Shown here: in pieces, positions 49,794-60,853 of the stretch
How the letters are laid out: every line of letters starts with the position of its first letter
Numbering within the stretch: position 1 is the first letter of the stretch
DNA from: a virus
Taxonomy: Duplodnaviria > Caudoviricetes
IMG/VR virus record: IMGVR_UViG_3300036987_000332
Span: 1 to 60,853 of that record
DNA length: 60,853 nt
Direction: 5' to 3' (one strand)
Made by a program: the position numbers and the translations under genes
The notes under the pieces: model-generated
Seen by the model: the letters and a program-made list of their open reading frames with translations, nothing else
Database searches by the model: none
Told to the model about the DNA's origin: nothing

Positions 49794-52664
49794 TCAGTCT
49801 TTTTTATAAAACGAACACTCGAAGCCGTCAGCGCGGAGTAGAAGCCCCTTCGCCCAGGGCGGCGTTTCGCCCATATAGCGACAAGCGACCTCCCGCGATA
49901 CATCAGGAGATGCTTCAATGACCACCTCATCATGGACTGTCATCACGATGGAAAGCCCCACGCTGTCCAACCGCCGCATCGCGTGGCAGAGGATGTCGCG
50001 GCTGATCGCCTGGACTACGTTCTCCACCAGTTTTGGGCCGTATGTCTCGATGCGCTCCCATTTTTTCGTCGCGCCAACACCCTCATAGGTAACCGAATCG
50101 CTGCCGAAGCTGTTTGTCCCGATCCGTGGTTTTACGTATGAAAGCCGTCTGCCGGAAGGGAGGGTGATGAAAAGGAAACCGCTGCGGTATTCAAAGATAA
50201 TGCCATGTGTCTGTACCGACATTTTATTACGTACGGCCGTCATCGCTGCACGGTCGACGTCCCACCAAAGACGTGTGATATTAGGATTGGCGGTACGCCA
50301 TGCAGTTACCAGCGGTTGTAGTTCATCTTCGGACAGGCCCATGTCAAGAGCGCCCATCGCCTTGAGCGCACCAACCGAACCGCCATATCCAAGAGCCAAC
50401 TCGGCTATTTTGCCTTTCTGCCGGAGCGTGCTGCCTTTGGTGATTTCCTCAATCGGGACTCGGAACATCTGGCTGGCTGAAGCCTCGTAAATCTTGCCAT
50501 GAGTGGCAAAAACCTCATTGCGCCAGCGTTCTCCGGCAAGCCAAGCGATGACGCGAGCTTCAATCGCACTAAAATCGGCCACAATGAACTTGCAGCCCGG
50601 ATCAGGCACGAAAGCGGTACGGATCAGTTCTGAGAGAACTGCCGGAACAGAATCATAGAGGGCTTCCATTGTAGCGTAGTCGCCGGATTTCACGAGCTGA
50701 CGTGCCTGAGCCAAGTCAGGCAAATGGTTTTGAGGAAGGTTTTGGACCTGGATTAAACGTCCCGAGTTGCCTGTTACCCAGACTCTGCCATTTCGCCTCA
50801 CTAAAAAAAATCCCGTTGATGTTATAGCGCAATATACTTGGCCGTCGAATTCTGATATGGTCGGCTTCGTTCTTATTTCATGACAGTTTTTTGGTGTCAA
50901 CCAAATGTCCACTGTATATACGACTCGCCATCCGGGGTTTTCTTTTGTCCGGTCCCTAATCCCTAAAAGTGCACTCCGGCCGCTTATGTGAGCAAATGCC
51001 TGAACCATGTCAGCATTCTGTTTGTTGCATGTACTATACTGAATACTATTTACCGCACTTCGATAGCCGTCCCAGTAAACCAGCTCGTCGAAAAACACAT
51101 CTGGGCTTTCGTCAAAAAGCCATGAACCAAAGGTTTTATCCTTAAATAGCCTTAACCAAAGCGGTACATGTCGCGCGTAGATGCTGAACGTCTCAATGAT
51201 CTTTCCATTTTGTTTGTGGCAGACTTGAGTATAGGTAATATCAGCTTTGCGCAGCAGTTCCTTGCAACGCTCAATTTTACGACTTTTGCTAAATGCCAAC
51301 CTCATACTACCTTCGCTTGTATAGTGCCCATCAGCCTGAACCATAACGAGAACACGTAGATAAGCATGTTCAAGCCCCGAATTTGTCATCCTGAATCCAG
51401 TGAATGGGATACTTGGACGGTATTGCGTAATGTTTTTAACAGTATCAACTACCCATTCACCGCCATATCTGCGCTTTACATACATTTTGTGGTCAGGTGT
51501 ACTGATTTGGGATATACGCTTATCTGAGTATTCATACATCGGACCCGTATAAGCGAAAGAAACAGCGTCTGCCATCTGAAATGATACGATTTCACCTTTA
51601 GGATTCCAGCAAGCGATTTCACTCCCTTGCCATTGATCCAAACATAGCCATCCGTCTTTGGTTAATATTTCATGATCACCGGTCAAGCAAAACCGGCCGG
51701 TTCTGTTGGCACCGTAAAATTGTAATAGGCCCCTGGCCCTGCCGTCTGAGCAAACTGCGTTTTCCATCGCTGTGTATTTCTTGATGCTGCTTTTGGCTAG
51801 GTCTTGCCTGAGCATAAGCACCTCTCCAAGGTTCTCCGGTGCGGTTTTGAGCAGCTGCTTGACCGCCGCCTTGTCCAGTGAATCCGTTTCCATCCCGTTT
51901 TCGGCGAGCCATGCTTTCATCTGGGCGACCGAATTGGGATTCTCCAGATCGGTAATCTCCTGCATAGTGTTTGTTAATTCAAACCTCGATCGCGTGTCAA
52001 TACGAATGGCCTCACTAACCAGATCTACGTCCAACCGTATGCCCCGGTCATTAATCTTTTGATCGAGAACGTAATTCTTCCACTCATCCTCCGGCATAGG
52101 AAATTTTGAGAGCCGACCCGTGATCGACAACTCCGTTTCTACATCGCGGACGTTGTACAGCTTGAACTGCTTCCATTTTTCCGGTGTGTGAGTAGGCAGA
52201 TTACGTGTGCGCCCATCGTTTACAATGGTTGGCTTGCAGGGTGAACAGAAATAACGGATGAGATCTTTACCTTCAGATAGCTTTTGCTTATCGGCACCTG
52301 TCACAACCGATGCGCCTGCCAGAGAAAGGGGTAGGCCCAGGTAGGCGCACCACACCATCGTGCAGCGCCATGACTGTGGGTCAAGATATTGACCTGTAGT
52401 CATACCCAAGTATCGCGATAAACAAATCCGCTCGAATTGAGCATTGTGAGCCCATTTCATAACGGTATCGTCATGTAGGGCTGTCCGAATTTCAGATGGC
52501 AGGGATTCGCCGGAGGTAAGGTCGATTACGTTTACCTTACCACCATCCGTGCTATAACCAAAAAGCAGTATTTCAAAATCAGGAGACTCAACGTAGCGAT
52601 AGACCCCGCTTTTCGCGAGGTCTACGCTACTGTATGTTTCCAGATCGACGTCAATGGTTTTCAT
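49794..52664 (-). CDS. Phage family-A DNA polymerase containing an intein
   Basis: D.ETYS exonuclease motif, ADFSAIEAR motif A, RQKGK.AELALGYG motif B, VHDE motif C. Confidence 0.93.
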   Translation of the reverse strand: MKTIDVDLETYSSVDLAKSGVYRYVESPDFEILLFGYSTDGGKVNVIDLTSGESLPSEIRTALHDDTVMKWAHNAQFERICLSRYLGMTTGQYLDPQSWRCTMVWCAYLGLPLSLAGASVVTGADKQKLSEGKDLIRYFCSPCKPTIVNDGRTRNLPTHTPEKWKQFKLYNVRDVETELSITGRLSKFPMPEDEWKNYVLDQKINDRGIRLDVDLVSEAIRIDTRSRFELTNTMQEITDLENPNSVAQMKAWLAENGMETDSLDKAAVKQLLKTAPENLGEVLMLRQDLAKSSIKKYTAMENAVCSDGRARGLLQFYGANRTGRFCLTGDHEILTKDGWLCLDQWQGSEIACWNPKGEIVSFQMADAVSFAYTGPMYEYSDKRISQISTPDHKMYVKRRYGGEWVVDTVKNITQYRPSIPFTGFRMTNSGLEHAYLRVLVMVQADGHYTSEGSMRLAFSKSRKIERCKELLRKADITYTQVCHKQNGKIIETFSIYARHVPLWLRLFKDKTFGSWLFDESPDVFFDELVYWDGYRSAVNSIQYSTCNKQNADMVQAFAHISGRSALLGIRDRTKENPGWRVVYTVDIWLTPKNCHEIRTKPTISEFDGQVYCAITSTGFFLVRRNGRVWVTGNSGRLIQVQNLPQNHLPDLAQARQLVKSGDYATMEALYDSVPAVLSELIRTAFVPDPGCKFIVADFSAIEARVIAWLAGERWRNEVFATHGKIYEASASQMFRVPIEEITKGSTLRQKGKIAELALGYGGSVGALKAMGALDMGLSEDELQPLVTAWRTANPNITRLWWDVDRAAMTAVRNKMSVQTHGIIFEYRSGFLFITLPSGRRLSYVKPRIGTNSFGSDSVTYEGVGATKKWERIETYGPKLVENVVQAISRDILCHAMRRLDSVGLSIVMTVHDEVVIEASPDVSREVACRYMGETPPWAKGLLLRADGFECSFYKKD
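50766..51689 (-). mobile_element. Intein (308 aa) with LAGLIDADG-type endonuclease region
   Basis: …RTGRF|CLTGDHEILTKDGW…STPDH…MVQADG…YWDG…VYC…TGFFLVRRNG..WVTGN|SGRLIQ; lower GC than the exteins. Confidence 0.9.
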
Positions 52665-54975: not shown

Positions 54976-55473
54976 TCAGAGCAAGTATTTCTTCAGCTTT
55001 TCGCGGATTTTTTTCAGCCTATTTCGGATTGCTGCCTCGGTCACGCCTTCTTCTGCTGCGATGTCAACGTTGGTGCGCCGCTGAACGTATACTTTTTCAA
55101 AAAGGGCGCGTTGCTGCGGTTGAAGGCTATTCATCGCCTTACCAAGCTGGAGAAGCCTGTCTGCGTAAGCTGCTTCATCTTCTTGGGAGATGAGGAGGCG
55201 TTCTGGGTTTGTGCTATTGTCAGCGAGGAGATTGTTGCGATCACCAGCTTCTTCGCCATCGCCGTCATGGTAGGCATCCAGATGTGCGGGAACGCGATAT
55301 TCATAACGACGCTGATCATCCACCTCGGCGTCGTCCATAGAGTGGAGAAGTTCAATGTCTGTTTCGGTGACGCCGTTCTCACCGGGCTTTAGTTCAAACA
55401 CTCTGTCACCATCAGTGTTGTAATAAATGTATGTAGCACGATTTTTTTGACCTGTTTTGAGATGCCTTGACAT
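54976..55473 (-). CDS. Sigma-70 region 4 (ECF-like) protein
   Basis: L…Q..L…Y…..DIA.EEGV.E.AIR.RL.KI..KLKK; start MSRHLK at 55473. Confidence 0.85.
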   Translation of the reverse strand: MSRHLKTGQKNRATYIYYNTDGDRVFELKPGENGVTETDIELLHSMDDAEVDDQRRYEYRVPAHLDAYHDGDGEEAGDRNNLLADNSTNPERLLISQEDEAAYADRLLQLGKAMNSLQPQQRALFEKVYVQRRTNVDIAAEEGVTEAAIRNRLKKIREKLKKYLL

Positions 55474-55476
55474 GTT

Positions 55477-55615
55477 TTGGCTCCTTTCAGATGCAGGAGC
55501 CAAGCCTCAAAATCAAAAAGCCGAACGTTACGAAACACAAATGGCCGGATGGTTACGATTTTGTATTTCGTAACTCATCCGGCCATTTGGTAACTCGCAC
55601 TCGGCTCCGTTGCTC
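55477..55615 (-). promoter_or_regulatory. Structured 5' leader of the sigma gene (long hairpin + U-tract + RBS-sequestering hairpin)
   Basis: Stem of 14+7 bp at 55538-55589, outer AGCCGA/TCGGCT, and a perfect 9-bp stem at 55477-55503 containing the RBS. Confidence 0.7.
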
Positions 55616-55637
55616 GGTATGAATGGGGTTTATTTTG

Positions 55638-55781
55638 TTATTTCTTATGGGACGGTTTCGTCTGGGATAGTGCGCTACCTGCGACTGATTTTGTTTTTGC
55701 GCTGGTACGGCCGTCTCTCAAAAGGGACGACGCTTTTTGCGCAACAGATGGGGAAGTCTGCTTGCGATTGATTTTGCTCAT
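55638..55781 (-). CDS. 47-aa basic peptide (not in ORF track)
   Basis: MSKINRKQTSPSVAQKASSLLRDGRTSAKTKSVAGSALSQTKPSHKK with strong RBS AAAGGAGGTGA. Confidence 0.7.
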   Translation of the reverse strand: MSKINRKQTSPSVAQKASSLLRDGRTSAKTKSVAGSALSQTKPSHKK

Positions 55782-55831
55782 TCTGATCACCTCCTTTCAC
55801 AGCAACCAAAGTTATGGTCGGGGTATGATAT

Positions 55832-55990
55832 TCACGGAACGTTAATAATGCATTCTTCAGTGCACGGAACCGTGACGAGCTTTTTACATTGTGGACACTT
55901 GAGCATGACTTCGACTTGCTCTTTCGGCAGTTTCGAGATGTCGAAGGCTCGACGTCCACATTTGGGGCATTTCATCTTCTCCATTAGCAT
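55832..55990 (-). CDS. Com-like zinc-ribbon protein (52 aa; not in ORF track)
   Basis: MLMEKMKCPKCGRRAFD…VMLKCPQCKKL…; RBS GAGGAG. Confidence 0.75.
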   Translation of the reverse strand: MLMEKMKCPKCGRRAFDISKLPKEQVEVMLKCPQCKKLVTVPCTEECIINVP

Positions 55991-56006: not shown

Positions 56007-56027
56007 TTGCTATAACGCTAATCCGCT
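56007..56027. promoter_or_regulatory. Operator-like box TTGCTATAACGCTAATCCGCT
   Basis: Near-identical copy at 57220-57240. Confidence 0.65.
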
Positions 56028-56081
56028 TTATAGCGAATCTAAATTGCAAAAAAAATGGCCTTACGTCAAATAGGGCATCTT

Positions 56082-56798
56082 CTATATGAGAAGATACCCT
56101 AACTCTTTGAGCCTAATTTCAGCTGACTGCTTAGAAACCTGAAAAAATGCCGCCAACTGTTCAATGATCCAACGTTCAGGTGGTATAAGATTTGCCGCGA
56201 TAAATGGATTTTCACAGCATTCTAGTTTGAACCGTTCAAAAGCAGCACCAACCGTTTCTCTGGGCATTAGGATTCGGGGAGCTATACCATTGGCTTGCCA
56301 CTCCATCCAGTCTTCATCTGTCCAAGTATCTTTGAATCTCTCGTCTTTTGTGTCACTAGGGCATCGAAAAGCCATAGAGGTCTTACCATCAATCTCACTC
56401 GACATGATATAGTAGTTCCTATGCTTGACCCAATGGACACACTCATGCGCTACGGTATTGCGCTGGCTTCCGAGGTTACGCCTGATGAGGGTGTCTGGAT
56501 CGATTATCATCGTTCCTGGCCTAACTCTGATTTCACGATATTCATCATTGACGCGGTCGTATATTTCTACAAGCCCACCAGTAAAGCACATTTGTCCCAG
56601 CACGCTAAAATTTTCTGTCAACCGTCGTTCAATAACGGCTAAACCCAGCTTTTTATGGGCGATTTCTTCAATAGGCACAAGCATTGGTGATTTCATGGTT
56701 TCCGGACAGTATGCGGAAAGGAAGGCTGTTGCCTCATCGTCAAACGAAGCCTTGCTAATATGCGGCACATAATCGTTTAGAATTTTCGATACAGCCAT
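56082..56798 (-). CDS. ImmA/IrrE-family metallopeptidase
   Basis: R.TVAHECVHW (HExxH), EWQAN..A..ILMP, F.VS..A.IRL. Confidence 0.9.
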   Translation of the reverse strand: MAVSKILNDYVPHISKASFDDEATAFLSAYCPETMKSPMLVPIEEIAHKKLGLAVIERRLTENFSVLGQMCFTGGLVEIYDRVNDEYREIRVRPGTMIIDPDTLIRRNLGSQRNTVAHECVHWVKHRNYYIMSSEIDGKTSMAFRCPSDTKDERFKDTWTDEDWMEWQANGIAPRILMPRETVGAAFERFKLECCENPFIAANLIPPERWIIEQLAAFFQVSKQSAEIRLKELGYLLI

Positions 56799-56802
56799 GG
56801 GA

Positions 56803-57186
56803 TCACTCCTTTTCGTCAATCGTATCCACAACTTTCTTCCAAAAGTCATCACCCAGGTTTTTATCGTTCGCTCTTCGGAGAGCTACCCGAACGTGAGGAA
56901 GATCCTCGTTCATAATGTAACTGGGCAAGTCGGGCGCTGCTTCGTTTCGTTCGCGACCGGCAAGGTCAAACATTTCCTCTTTCTCATCAGACGAGAGATT
57001 AATAACCGCAGCGATTTTTTCTAACAATTTCATATCGGGGGGATTGCGCCTTCCTTTAATAATGTCTGAAAGGTAGGTTGCGGTCATTTCCATCGCTTTT
57101 GCTATGTCTTTTAACATTATGTCGCCACCGTCGGCAGCGCGGCCTCTGCGTTTTTCATCAATATATTTTCCAAATTCACCAACCAC
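56803..57186 (-). CDS. XRE-family repressor (ImmR-like)
   Basis: FG.YI..KR…LKDIA…YLSDI.KGRR.PP; adjacent to ImmA. Confidence 0.88.
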   Translation of the reverse strand: MVGEFGKYIDEKRRGRAADGGDIMLKDIAKAMEMTATYLSDIIKGRRNPPDMKLLEKIAAVINLSSDEKEEMFDLAGRERNEAAPDLPSYIMNEDLPHVRVALRRANDKNLGDDFWKKVVDTIDEKE

Positions 57187-57354: not shown

Positions 57355-57744
57355 TTATCGGGTAGAGGAGGGCAAATAGACAAATGATTGTGGCGGAAAT
57401 GCAATTCCATATTCGGATAGGCTTCGGGGTTTATCGTATTCTTCAACGTTTCTCAACCTGTAAGCAACAGCCTTTTTTTTGCCTTTGTAATAGGCGCGGA
57501 AAAAGTTATACGTAATACCCGAAAAGTCCCTAGTTTGCCTCCATACCTCATTAATTTCGTCTTCAATTATTTCTTCGATTTCGGCCTCGGCTACAACCAT
57601 TTTTTGTGGGGCAGTAGCATAAATGATGATTCTGTCCACATCGGACTTGCACCGCACTTTTCTGAACTCGAAGAGTTTTTTCCCCCTGAGGATATTTTCA
57701 ACATGTATAGGATTAATTGATAATAACATTTTGCACATCAACAT
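57355..57744 (-). CDS. ASCH/PUA-like domain protein
   Basis: LLSINP…I..GKK.FEFRK, IYAT.P…VV.E, PPQSF.Y. Confidence 0.88.
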   Translation of the reverse strand: MLMCKMLLSINPIHVENILRGKKLFEFRKVRCKSDVDRIIIYATAPQKMVVAEAEIEEIIEDEINEVWRQTRDFSGITYNFFRAYYKGKKKAVAYRLRNVEEYDKPRSLSEYGIAFPPQSFVYLPSSTR

Positions 57745-58807
57745 TGCCCTCCAAGAGTATTTCTTTGAATTGTTCTGGTGTCAATCGAGCGGTTGTAGGG
57801 TAGCTGTTAGGCCAATACCCATTGCCACTCAACCACGACCAGTTGACATTGTTTCCAGCTCCGAAAAAGCCATAGTAGAGCATCTCAACAGCAACCAGAG
57901 TTCGCTCGTTGCTATACTTGGCCCTTATTTCGTTTTCGTCAAAAACAGATTTGTTATTTATCAGTTGAAGTAGATCATCTACAGTCATTTTACAACTATT
58001 ATTCTCTTTCACCACAAGGACTTTCGTAACCACGCAATACGATGTGATGCATGACTTATGTCCTTTTGAACCTGTGGTACCGTTGTATTTTCGATATACA
58101 AGGATTGGCTCACCTATACGGTAAGGAAGTTGGCTAGTTGGCGAACCAATATAGACCTTGGTCATTCCGTTTGCAACAGAAAGTGCTACTTGCTCCTGAA
58201 GAGTGTTTTTTAACTCTGAATATGGGAAAAGGGTGTCATGATAGACATCATCCACGATGAGATATCCAGCGTTTTGAAAGTTAGGATTGATAAAAGGGAA
58301 AGACTTATATGGATCGCGATAATCTAGCTCGGTCCGGCTTTTTACGTATACTCGCTCACCGTTCGGATTATACCCAGCAAGATAAAATCCGAACCGTTCC
58401 AACTGCGCTATTAAAAGATCGTGTTTTTCAAATACAGTCAGATAGATTTCTTTCGTTTTAGACTTCTGCCACTTCCACAGAACAAGGCCGATGGCGCCTT
58501 CGCCGAGTCGTTTGCCACGGTAACGTTCGGCAAGGCGAAGTGTACTGATTTTTATGCGCGGTAAGGCAGGAAGCATTTCACCCACCAGTTCGATCGGTTC
58601 ATTTTCATCTTTAAGGCAAACAAAAGCCCCTAAGCCCTCATCATCATCAAAAACAAGGGCAGTAGTTCCGGTCGCCGCTTTCCTGGCAAACCACCTCTCA
58701 AAGCCAATGTTATTCGCGTCAGCGGGATAGTCTGCTTTAAGAGGGTCAAAAAATGGATCGCTTATATCAATATCAGAAAACTTTTTCAATAAGAACTTGT
58801 CAGCCAT
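57713..58807 (-). CDS. GNAT acetyltransferase with probable C-terminal PUA/ASCH-like domain
   Basis: F..L..DY…F..WF..K, KISTL…YRGKRLGE (acetyl-CoA loop), L.RFGF, YHD.LFP.SEL, K.YI…G..I..YR. Confidence 0.82.
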   Translation of the reverse strand: MADKFLLKKFSDIDISDPFFDPLKADYPADANNIGFERWFARKAATGTTALVFDDDEGLGAFVCLKDENEPIELVGEMLPALPRIKISTLRLAERYRGKRLGEGAIGLVLWKWQKSKTKEIYLTVFEKHDLLIAQLERFGFYLAGYNPNGERVYVKSRTELDYRDPYKSFPFINPNFQNAGYLIVDDVYHDTLFPYSELKNTLQEQVALSVANGMTKVYIGSPTSQLPYRIGEPILVYRKYNGTTGSKGHKSCITSYCVVTKVLVVKENNSCKMTVDDLLQLINNKSVFDENEIRAKYSNERTLVAVEMLYYGFFGAGNNVNWSWLSGNGYWPNSYPTTARLTPEQFKEILLEGNVDVQNVIIN

Positions 58808-59339
58808 TCTCGATCCTCCTAATAATCGCTTGTAAAAAGCAAAGCGTTTTTTCGAAATCATTTGATCCGGAAGAGATCGTAATAGGGACACCTAGCACTT
58901 CTGCTATTTCATTTGCATAATACATTTCTTCATCTTGAAAGTGCTGTATAGCACTGACATCAGGAATAATGCCATCTCGTTGACCTCTTCTTTCAGCAAT
59001 GATCTCTGGCGTTTCAGTTAGCAATATTATAGCTTCAGGATGGAGAGCTATAAACGTCTCAGTAGGAATACGAGAAACATTTCCATCAGAATTGAGCAAA
59101 CAAAAATGTCCGTCAAGAATGTATTTTGTGCTGGAGAAGTTAAGATCGTTGACAGCTGCAAGCAGATATTGCTGATTGTTGTCAATATCAGGTATCAGTT
59201 TATCATTTGCGAAGTTAACGTTTTTTCGATTAGCAATCAATTTGCTTGCTGAATGTGTGACAATGCCCAACTCTACATTGACTCTTTGACAAAAATAGGA
59301 TTTACCGACTCCGTGCACACCGCTAAGAAAGATCATCAC
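58800..59339 (-). CDS. P-loop nucleotide kinase-like (AAA_17/adenylate kinase-like) protein
   Basis: IFLSGVHGVGKS, SAS.LI, LDGHFCL, I.ERR..RD. Confidence 0.85.
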   Translation of the reverse strand: MMIFLSGVHGVGKSYFCQRVNVELGIVTHSASKLIANRKNVNFANDKLIPDIDNNQQYLLAAVNDLNFSSTKYILDGHFCLLNSDGNVSRIPTETFIALHPEAIILLTETPEIIAERRGQRDGIIPDVSAIQHFQDEEMYYANEIAEVLGVPITISSGSNDFEKTLCFLQAIIRRIENG

Positions 59340-59413
59340 GATTCTCCTCCACCTGAATTATTATATCATTTCAAAATTATGGAATCAAGGGAAAACTTCA
59401 ATATTCATGTCTT

Positions 59414-59456
59414 CGCACGAATAATTCTTGCGTTGTAATTATTAGTTTGTTATATT
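59414..59456 (+). promoter_or_regulatory. Palindrome CGCAcGAATAATTCtTGCG overlapping a TTGCGT-N17-TATATT promoter
   Basis: In the divergent intergenic region between the kinase operon and xre. Confidence 0.55.
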
Positions 59457-59500
59457 ATACCCATATAGAAAATTCATATAAACCAAGCGAGGTGTGTACC

Positions 59501-59713
59501 ATGGCCATCAGTTATAAGAAATTGTGGAAACTTCTTATTGATAGAGACCTTAAGAAAAAAGACCTACAGAGAATTGCAGGTATCAGTTCAGCGTCTGTAA
59601 CCAAACTTGGCAAAAACGAAAATGTTAATACCGAAATTCTAGGGAAAATATGTAAAGCGTTGGGCTGTGATATTGCAGATATTATGGAGATAATTGATGA
59701 GCCGAGGATGTAA
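59501..59713 (+). CDS. Small Cro/C1-type HTH regulator
   Basis: MAISYKKLWKLLIDRDLKKKDL…KIC.AL.C.I.DIME. Confidence 0.9.
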   Translation: MAISYKKLWKLLIDRDLKKKDLQRIAGISSASVTKLGKNENVNTEILGKICKALGCDIADIMEIIDEPRM

Positions 59714-59732
59714 AGATGGAAGGGGGGGCTAT

Positions 59733-60731
59733 ATGGAAATATACACACCACACCAGACAAGATATTTTGCCGAACAGATAATGTTGAAACGCCCACAATC
59801 AAGCATTGACGGTCTTGCTTCATCGATGTCAGGTGTGAAAGTCGACCTCAACCCCCATCAGGTCGATGCAGCCTTATTTACTTTGAAATCACCACTTTCT
59901 AATGGCGCTTTGCTTGCAGACGAAGTAGGACTAGGAAAAACAATTGAAGCGGGTCTTGTCCTCTCTCAACATTGGTCGGAACGCAAACGCCGTATATTAC
60001 TTATTGTGCCAGCATCACTACGTACCCAATGGCGTGCAGAACTTATCGATAAATTTTATATTAAATCGAATATCCTCGAATCTACAAACTACAACAAGGC
60101 AAAAAAGTCAGGTATTTTGAATCCCTTTGACGTAAAGGATGAGGTGGTAATCTGTTCATTCAATTTTGCCTCACTAAAAGAGAATGAAGTACATGCCACT
60201 CCATGGGACTTGGTTATCATTGATGAGGCGCATCGTCTCCGAAATGTTTATAAACCAGGAAATGTTATTGGGGTGCGGCTAAGACGAGCACTCTCAGGCA
60301 AACGCAAACTACTTCTCACTGCGACCCCTCTTCAGAATAACCTCATGGAATTATACGGACTTGTGAGCATCATTGATGAGCACGTGTTTGGTGATTCTCG
60401 GACGTTTAGGGATATGTACGTTTCCGTAGCAAACGAAGAAATAAGAGACCGTGCATTAAAAAAACGACTGCAGCAATTCTGTAAGCGAACCCTTAGAAAG
60501 CAAGTCACTGAGTACATTAACTACACAAGTCGAATTGCAATCTTGCAGGAATACATACCAACAGCAGATGAAGAAAAATTATACAACTTTATATCAACTT
60601 ATTTACAATCTGAGAGGCTTTACGCCCTCCCACAGGGGCAGCGAACTTTAATAACGCTTGTATTAAGAAAATTGTTAGCTTCCTCATCATTTGCCATTTC
60701 TGGTACTTTAAACTCATTAATTGAAACCTAA
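59733..60731 (+). pseudogene. SNF2-family helicase, N-terminal ATPase lobe only (truncated)
   Basis: LADEVGLGKT, DEAH and TATP present; stops before any HELICc motifs and is followed by AT-rich non-coding DNA. Confidence 0.75.
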
Positions 60732-60853
60732 GCTCCCGCTTATTTTTATACCTACAACACTGATATTACATTATTAATAGCTTGAATGCAATATGCCCTA
60801 TCGACTGAAATACGTGATTGATTCTATAGTTCCAGCGTAGTTTTGCTTCGATG

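Follow-up and report, generated by a model that had tools for sequence, protein, structure and literature searches.

A Com-like zinc-ribbon gene and a multi-state leader RNA form a candidate protein-dependent attenuator and translational lock in a temperate Bacillota phage

The Com protein of phage Mu binds a hairpin that adjoins the translation-inhibition structure of mom and activates translation, and its target hairpin carries the motif CC(N)2-3GAG (PMC6483171). The com gene, for a small Cys4 zinc-finger protein, lies immediately 5' of the target, and the target RNA places a hairpin 5' of the structure that hides the translation start (PMC6483171; Mu annotation). Both features recur in the locus described here, which lies in a 60,853-bp IMG/VR virus record (IMGVR_UViG_3300036987_000332, the whole of which is referred to below as the window) and has all of its genes of interest on the minus strand. 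Read 5' to 3', this strand encodes an ImmR-like repressor, an ImmA-like metalloprotease, a 52-amino-acid (aa) zinc ribbon and a small basic open reading frame (ORF), followed by a non-coding leader and a gene for a 165-aa protein with a sigma-70 region 4. Unlike the Mu system, no member of this zinc-ribbon family was seen to reach the Pfam cut-off for Com, the conserved core of the RNA is a terminator/antiterminator pair, and the target is not a late DNA-modification gene, as in Mu, but the early gene of a region-4 regulator in a Bacillota phage. We propose, with a probability of about one half, that the locus is a protein-dependent attenuator combined with a translational lock on the early operon of a temperate Bacillota phage, and that the Com-like zinc ribbon is its ligand.

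Two other described systems are close to this arrangement. In leaders controlled by proteins of the BglG/SacY/LicT type, a weak ribonucleic antiterminator (RAT) with conserved loop nucleotides overlaps the 5' strand of a terminator, and a composite antiterminator (AT)-like hairpin of the present leader, AT-P1, stands in the same relation to the core terminator stem. Unlike the BglG/SacY/LicT proteins, the candidate ligand here is a 52-aa zinc ribbon and not a CAT-PRD protein, and it is encoded in cis on the same transcript; unlike RAT leaders, the RNA has a second layer, consisting of a hairpin over the Shine-Dalgarno (SD) sequence and a shifted pairing register. The zipper-type attenuator and ConAn elements of the pLS20 family also occupy the leader of a mobile-element operon in Gram-positive bacteria, contain sequences flanking a long stem-loop that re-pair to interconvert terminator and antiterminator, and combine a small protein gene with an RNA element at the operon start (PMC13401043, PMC8191782). 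Extending the long stem gives the antiterminator in pLS20 and the terminator here. In addition, the ConAn paper (PMC8191782) mentions no zinc-binding protein, and the words 'zinc' and 'cysteine' occur in it 0 times.

The pairing of a zinc-ribbon gene with a multi-state leader seems undescribed. No description of the cassette was found in the literature searched, a search whose coverage mostly excluded subscription journals. Among named relatives, a Syntrophomonadaceae phage classified under Ca. Heliusvirales is closest, with 67.7% identity across the region, and the terms zinc, antitermin-, sigma, repressor, terminator and lysogeny are all absent from the text of the Heliusvirales paper.

Mutually exclusive folds in the leader RNA

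The 181-nucleotide (nt) leader of the window folds with an energy of -71.5 kcal/mol (z = -7.96), and 0 of 200 dinucleotide shuffles fold as well. Its OFF fold contains a long terminator-like hairpin of ~89 nt (55519-55607, from RNAfold) that is made up of a core stem (P2), an apical hairpin and a basal extension. The long stem joins two 14-nt arms that are 100% complementary (55538-55551 and 55576-55589), and the hairpin is closed by AGCCGA/UCGGCU and then followed by UUUUUGAUUUUGA. A U-run, read directly from the sequence, occupies 55506-55518, so that the window carries UUUUUGAUUUU directly after the basal stem, as an intrinsic terminator requires. In most relatives UUUUUG follows the core stem and another U-run follows the basal stem, with U-tracts of varying quality. 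An initial annotation of this DNA, made from the sequence alone, had pointed to the long stem, its closing pairs and the U-run, all of which are indeed present on the minus strand.

The same annotation had described a 9-bp hairpin over the SD, and this too is found: the SD-sequestering hairpin (55477-55503) pairs an anti-SD arm at 55495-55503 with an SD arm at 55477-55485 over 9 nt with 100% complementarity and a 9-nt loop, ends 3 nt before the ATG at 55473, and is conserved and covarying in relatives. Two further pairings compete with these structures. One is a 15-bp alternative between 55527-55541 and 55560-55574 (93% complementary), which is part of a shifted-register ON fold. The other is a long-range pairing (55496-55608) of an SD-like 5' segment at 55599-55608 with an anti-SD segment at 55496-55505; this duplex has an energy of -21.5 kcal/mol in the window, is also present in most relatives, and would free the SD. 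A third conformation, AT-P1 (55575-55622), is a composite hairpin with invariant internal loops in which the AT helix pairs 55615-55622 with 55575-55581 and the P1 helix pairs 55602-55608 with 55589-55597; covariance model R1 scores 76.2 bits at 55575-55622. A scan against Rfam release 15 (E <= 10), a check that had been proposed with the initial annotation, returned no family and only chance matches of the microRNA type, the best of which reached 32.7 bits compared with a gathering score of 80.

The leader has at least these three mutually exclusive folds, each supported by comparative analysis. In an alignment of 34 distinct sequences (A2; this and the other alignments were made with MAFFT and were not structure-fitted), 88.0% of cells are paired in the OFF fold, compared with 31-48% in slid controls, and 12 pairs have changed on both sides. 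In the AT helix, CCG and the four bases preceding ACCG pair with CGG and the four bases that follow it. This CGG-AUGA strand is also the 5' strand of the core terminator stem, so the AT helix and the terminator share it, and 331 of 350 cells of the AT helix are paired (21-52% in shifted registers). Three pairs of the AT helix show compensatory changes in the L173 group and one pair does so in the L126 group, and the 3' strand of the terminator changes with them. The leader therefore has what defines an attenuator, two mutually exclusive helices that have a strand in common and are both conserved. For the AT-P1 composite as a whole, 96.5% of cells are paired (19-41% in slid controls), 8 of 14 pairs have changed on both sides, and none of 500 shuffles scores as high. 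In the six representatives listed, the nascent 5' half of the leader has AT-P1 as its minimum-energy fold. The nucleotides of its internal loops are invariant, a pattern expected of a protein-binding site.

The ON fold is paired in 78.3% of A2 cells, compared with 35-49% in slid controls, and 13 of its pairs have changed on both sides. Within it, the 15-bp pairing that the initial annotation had proposed (helix 4) is paired in 85.3% of cells with 8 pairs changed on both sides, and many relatives keep it with different sequences and compensatory changes; helix 2, the SD-like/anti-SD pairing, is paired in 83.2% of cells and shows little covariation. When the SD was forced open in folding, the leaders L032, L115, L075 and L074 adopted the shifted register, in which the whole 5' arm lies on a second, quasi-repeated 3' arm; that of L072 kept the core stem and was closed by the SD-like segment on the anti-SD segment, and the optimum for the window leader was a different fold. 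The pairing of the 5' arm with the second 3' arm has z < -3 in 34 of 44 distinct leaders (-34.9 kcal/mol and z = -5.6 in the window). Because the other ten leaders, including those of the L126, L171 and L173 groups, lack a second arm, the universal core of the RNA consists of AT-P1 and the terminator. In 38 of 44 distinct leaders the sense strand folds more stably than its antisense counterpart, which points to a role at the RNA level.

These results bear in two ways on what the initial annotation had suggested. Mutually exclusive folds are indeed conserved in this structured leader RNA, and the counts of pairs changed on both sides support them. The SD hairpin, which had been seen as locking the ribosome-binding site of the sigma gene, is not the universally conserved core; this is the terminator/antiterminator pair, and transcription attenuation is therefore at least as likely as translational activation of the Com type. 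A mini-hairpin CCG-AGCAA-CGG was also considered and was not adopted; none of its 3 pairs shows a two-sided change, and 3 sequences break it.

The zinc ribbon and its association with the RNA

The RNA and the zinc-ribbon gene were found together from either starting point. A total of 42 IMG/VR contigs contain a 17-mer taken from the 5' arm, and 3 of them are chance matches inside coding sequence. These 42 contigs, the window and three genome loci with the same leader class (class A, see below) make up 46 scanned loci, of which 40, that is every locus with enough upstream sequence, have a zinc-ribbon homolog directly upstream; the remaining three true elements (L067, L093 and L095) are too near a contig end to show the upstream gene. 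An ImmA homolog lies upstream of the module in 32 of the 46 loci. The reverse search, made with the protein alignment, recovered 80 viral loci, and 80 of 80 carry the RNA element downstream, including variants that lack the 17-mer; all 80 score at least 49.8 bits with R1, a model that was built from members of the same set. The zinc ribbon and the leader RNA are thus always together, in 80/80 loci identified by protein and in 40/40 identified by RNA with sufficient flank. A search with R1 of 150 further genomes of one Bacillota class (that of G001) found no further true copy, the sole new match, at 29 bits, being a false positive inside a 530-aa coding sequence.

The zinc-ribbon gene (55832-55990) is the ORF for an unannotated 52-aa CPKC...CPQC protein that the initial annotation had noticed, and it encodes a Cys4 zinc ribbon. 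C8, C11, C32 and C35 are invariant in the family alignment (A3, 32 sequences), and an AlphaFold2 model predicts a four-strand ribbon (predicted local distance difference test score, pLDDT, 90.6). As in Mu Com, a chain of ~60 aa carries two CxxC knuckles in an N-terminal Cys4 zinc finger, and the comparisons at sequence level go partly in favor of the Com likeness proposed in the initial annotation. In its favor, hhalign of A3 with Mu Com (sequence from the Mu record) gave a probability of 87% and an E value of 3.8e-6 over 35 columns that include both knuckles, phrog_6417 is matched by both the window protein (4.8e-4) and Mu Com (2.8e-10), and phrog_5602 is likewise matched by both. Less favorably, the Com family of Pfam (PF10122, Zn_ribbon_Com) stays below threshold: 21 of 32 A3 members match it at E <= 1, with a best E value of 4.9e-4 that does not reach the cut-off, it is one among many generic zinc-ribbon families matching A3 members at a similar level, and it is absent from the Pfam matches of the window protein at E <= 0.1. 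Searches of PDB by sequence, and of PDB and BFVD with Foldseek, returned only generic zinc-finger or zinc-ribbon matches, none of them at E <= 0.001; the nearest are ~48-residue chains in bacterial ribosome entries. Judged from sequence, the protein may belong to the Com family, an assignment that we make tentatively.

On the RNA side, the leader and the 19-mer target of Mu Com have only a 6-mer in common, and 730 of 5000 shuffles do as well. A longer match to the Mu target was seen in relatives and was set aside, as it is absent from the L126 group. In one locus (L077:3234-3326) the zinc-ribbon ORF ends after 30 aa and the leader is intact; this may be a broken copy or an assembly error.

Leader classes and genomic setting

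To place the leader among its relatives, 47 loci with a homolog of the window region-4 protein were collected and their leaders sorted into classes. A class A leader was accompanied by the zinc ribbon described here in 4 of 4 loci, and in 28 of 28 class B loci the leader was accompanied by another small protein (49-69 aa); of the other 15 loci, 3 have a B-type protein, 2 have other zinc ribbons and 10 have no small ORF that passed the filters. Strong R1 matches were confined to the four class A loci among 48 searched, and weak matches of 26-27 bits in L030 and L054 were not at the leader position. Thus, protein and leader are swapped together while the downstream gene stays homologous. All leader classes place a hairpin over the SD behind a terminator-like hairpin, and the SD stems differ in sequence between classes, which amounts to covariation for SD sequestration.

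Most region-4 homologs (L007-L055, for example L016:1182-1500) have a class B leader, in which an outer stem encloses a terminator and its 3' arm occurs a second time beside the anti-SD segment. The class B protein is cysteine-poor and matched no Pfam or PHROG family, and hhalign gave no support for its homology to the zinc ribbon or to Mu Com (probability 2% in both comparisons). Class B looks like a second type of cassette built on the same logic. In L029:1169-1372 and L051:1117-1344, a longer zinc ribbon (67-75 aa), in which a wide spacer separates the two CxxC knuckles, precedes a plain terminator, and the 3' arm of this terminator recurs as the anti-SD segment. Within the group L016/L018/L023/L035/L041, and likewise within the group L017/L019/L044, all members have the same 200 nt in front of the region-4 gene, and both groups mix viral contigs with differently titled Bacillota (for example, uncultured Ruminococcaceae bacterium and Clostridium oryzae), which suggests a very mobile or broad-host element.

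The regulated gene (54976-55473, ATG at 55473) encodes a 165-aa protein that the initial annotation had called a sigma factor. Region 4 of sigma-70 is present, with Sigma70_r4_2 (E 1.1e-09) and Sigma70_r4 both matching residues 108-162; Pfam does not find the region 2 (for -10 recognition and core binding) that a sigma-70 protein would have in addition, and the N-terminal 100 aa match no Pfam family. Among 10 representative relatives, the gene 3' of the leader encodes region 4 in 7, and its N-terminal part varies.

Between the zinc-ribbon gene and the leader lies a 47-aa basic ORF (55638-55781; strong SD and ATG; phrog_5079, E 2.3e-18) that is rich in lysine and serine. The initial annotation had taken the entire interval as a non-coding leader and overlooked this conserved ORF; because 55638-55781 is coding, the non-coding leader measures only ~164 nt (55474-55637). 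The ORF is an optional insert, found in only 16 of 40 zinc-ribbon loci, and its predicted product could be an accessory RNA-binding factor. Leader-peptide attenuation by way of the upstream ORF was rejected: the distance between the stop codon upstream and the AT strand ranges from ~6 nt to >100 nt, and the protein sequence is conserved.

Upstream, the ImmR-like and ImmA-like genes that the initial annotation had reported are supported by Pfam. The first (56803-57186, 127 aa) encodes a helix-turn-helix (HTH) repressor (HTH_3, E 6.1e-07; PHROG transcriptional repressor families) and the second (56082-56852, 256 aa) a metalloprotease (Peptidase_M78, E 1.8e-09; phrog_4031, E 3.7e-62). The two genes adjoin and overlap, as in ImmR/ImmA-type modules, for which repression and cleavage are predicted functions. 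A palindrome with 13-nt arms (56071-56101) spans the immA stop codon, is followed on the minus strand by a weak U-run, and may be the terminator of an immR-immA transcript. Between immA and the zinc-ribbon gene, an inverted repeat with 10-nt arms that are 90% complementary (56009-56034) is a candidate operator, and a promoter scan of the same interval called no sigma-70-like site.

Behind the 165-aa gene come genes for phrog_7234, phrog_408, a DUF2800 exonuclease, an Enc34-type single-stranded DNA-binding protein and a family A DNA polymerase. Since these genes follow it, the cassette heads the early replication module. The DNA polymerase ORF (49794-52664, minus strand, 956 aa) has a Pfam match confined to residues 679-798 and a long middle insertion, the ends of which look intein-like by what we take to be the usual pattern. 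Beyond immR, the interval 57355-60853 contains an ASCH-like gene (phrog_3136), a 392-aa ORF without a Pfam family, an AAA_17 ATPase-like gene, a Cro/C1 HTH gene and an SNF2-related helicase gene running toward the window end; these genes may be accessory or defence-type cargo.

A protein-dependent gate on the early operon

The organization of the cassette suggests how a protein-dependent attenuator and a translational lock could operate together. Loss of ImmR mediated by ImmA would lead the early promoter to produce the zinc-ribbon protein first. In nascent RNA, the 5' flank would lie on the 5' strand of the terminator stem and enclose P1 and the invariant loops; by analogy with the logic of RAT/LicT-type leaders, we infer that the zinc ribbon binds the invariant part of this AT-P1 state and stabilizes the antiterminator, so that RNA polymerase would pass the terminator. 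In the OFF state, the long hairpin and its U-runs would act as an intrinsic terminator, in addition to the hairpin over the SD of the region-4 gene. Read-through RNA could then adopt the shifted register, the ON state, in which the 5' arm would pair one module further downstream and hold the anti-SD segment, leaving the SD exposed; both this route to the ON fold and the positive direction of control are our reading of the folds. In a lysogen, the terminator would in addition shield the lytic operon, since immR and immA run in the same direction as the early genes. The cassette is a probable gate to lytic growth.

The model of the initial annotation, in which the protein acts only after transcription, as Com does, and promotes the shifted register or melts the SD hairpin, with a leader that either always lets RNA polymerase pass or terminates constitutively, accounts for a good part of these observations and appears doubtful on balance. 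The protein resembles Com, the gene order is that of com-mom, and the SD is freed in the ON fold, itself a conserved structure. Class A leaders with a gene directly behind them have the SD hairpin, and this hairpin covaries, with a GACUCC/GGAGUC pairing in L057 and other sequences in class C leaders. Against this model, what stays invariant across all 80 loci is the 5' segment with the terminator stem, and neither the SD hairpin nor the second 3' arm; a significant second arm is missing from 10 of 44 distinct leaders; the AT helix covaries with the terminator stem; and the likeness to the Mu Com target RNA is not significant.

It is unlikely that the leader functions independently of the protein, with its hairpins serving as an insulator against immR-immA read-through and as an element of RNA stability or processing, and with a zinc ribbon that is merely linked and has another role, for example in binding to DNA or to a different protein. 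With immR and immA upstream on the same strand, an insulator would serve a purpose, long near-perfect duplexes are typical substrates of RNase III, and binding of the zinc ribbon to the leader is itself inferred. A plain terminator, however, needs neither a 5' segment that is invariant far beyond the needs of pairing nor three conserved folds, and protein type and leader class change together although the downstream gene is still homologous.

The optional basic ORF is reminiscent of lambda N, and the cassette stands at the start of a long operon, as would suit processive antitermination, in which a protein-RNA complex rides RNA polymerase, as with lambda N-nut and pLS20 ConAn, and suppresses this and later terminators. 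The succession of a small protein gene and a conserved RNA is also comparable to ConAn1/ConAn2 (PMC8191782), yet this explanation is improbable, as the covarying competition between AT helix and terminator points to a local, passive mechanism.

It is crucial to set against the proposed protein-dependent attenuator and lock the observations that count against it. For the protein, no Pfam family matches the zinc ribbon above its cut-off, and fold searches of PDB and BFVD with Foldseek gave no match at E <= 0.001. For the RNA, the U-tract of the window is weak right after the core stem, and a good U-run appears only behind the basal stem; compensatory changes in the AT helix are confined to two lineages; and the ON fold is 8-12 kcal/mol less stable than the minimum-energy fold. 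In the AT-P1 state, P1 sequesters the SD-like segment, so antitermination alone fails to explain release of the SD. As to the association of the two, the zinc-ribbon gene adjoins the RNA, so simple linkage accounts for part of their co-occurrence, and near-identity among many contigs leaves 50 distinct elements and far fewer independent lineages.

A wider generalization is possible and is offered tentatively. Exchangeable cassettes, each consisting of a tiny RNA-binding protein and its own multi-state leader, might gate the early operons of temperate phages and related mobile elements of Bacillota, with the Com-like zinc ribbon in class A, the cysteine-poor protein of ~50 aa in class B, and other classes besides. 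If so, the class A zinc ribbon might be the first transcription antiterminator of the Com type, and a single RNA might couple antitermination to release of the ribosome-binding site through a three-register hairpin.

The cassette would add a new family of structured RNA with a candidate cognate protein, and would constitute a compact and probably orthogonal protein-RNA switch over both transcription read-through and translation. The swapping of protein and leader together between phages would provide a natural specificity series in which co-evolution of the pair can be tested. Zinc fingers of the Com type would also extend from one late gene of Mu to the commitment between lysis and lysogeny in a widespread group of Bacillota phages.

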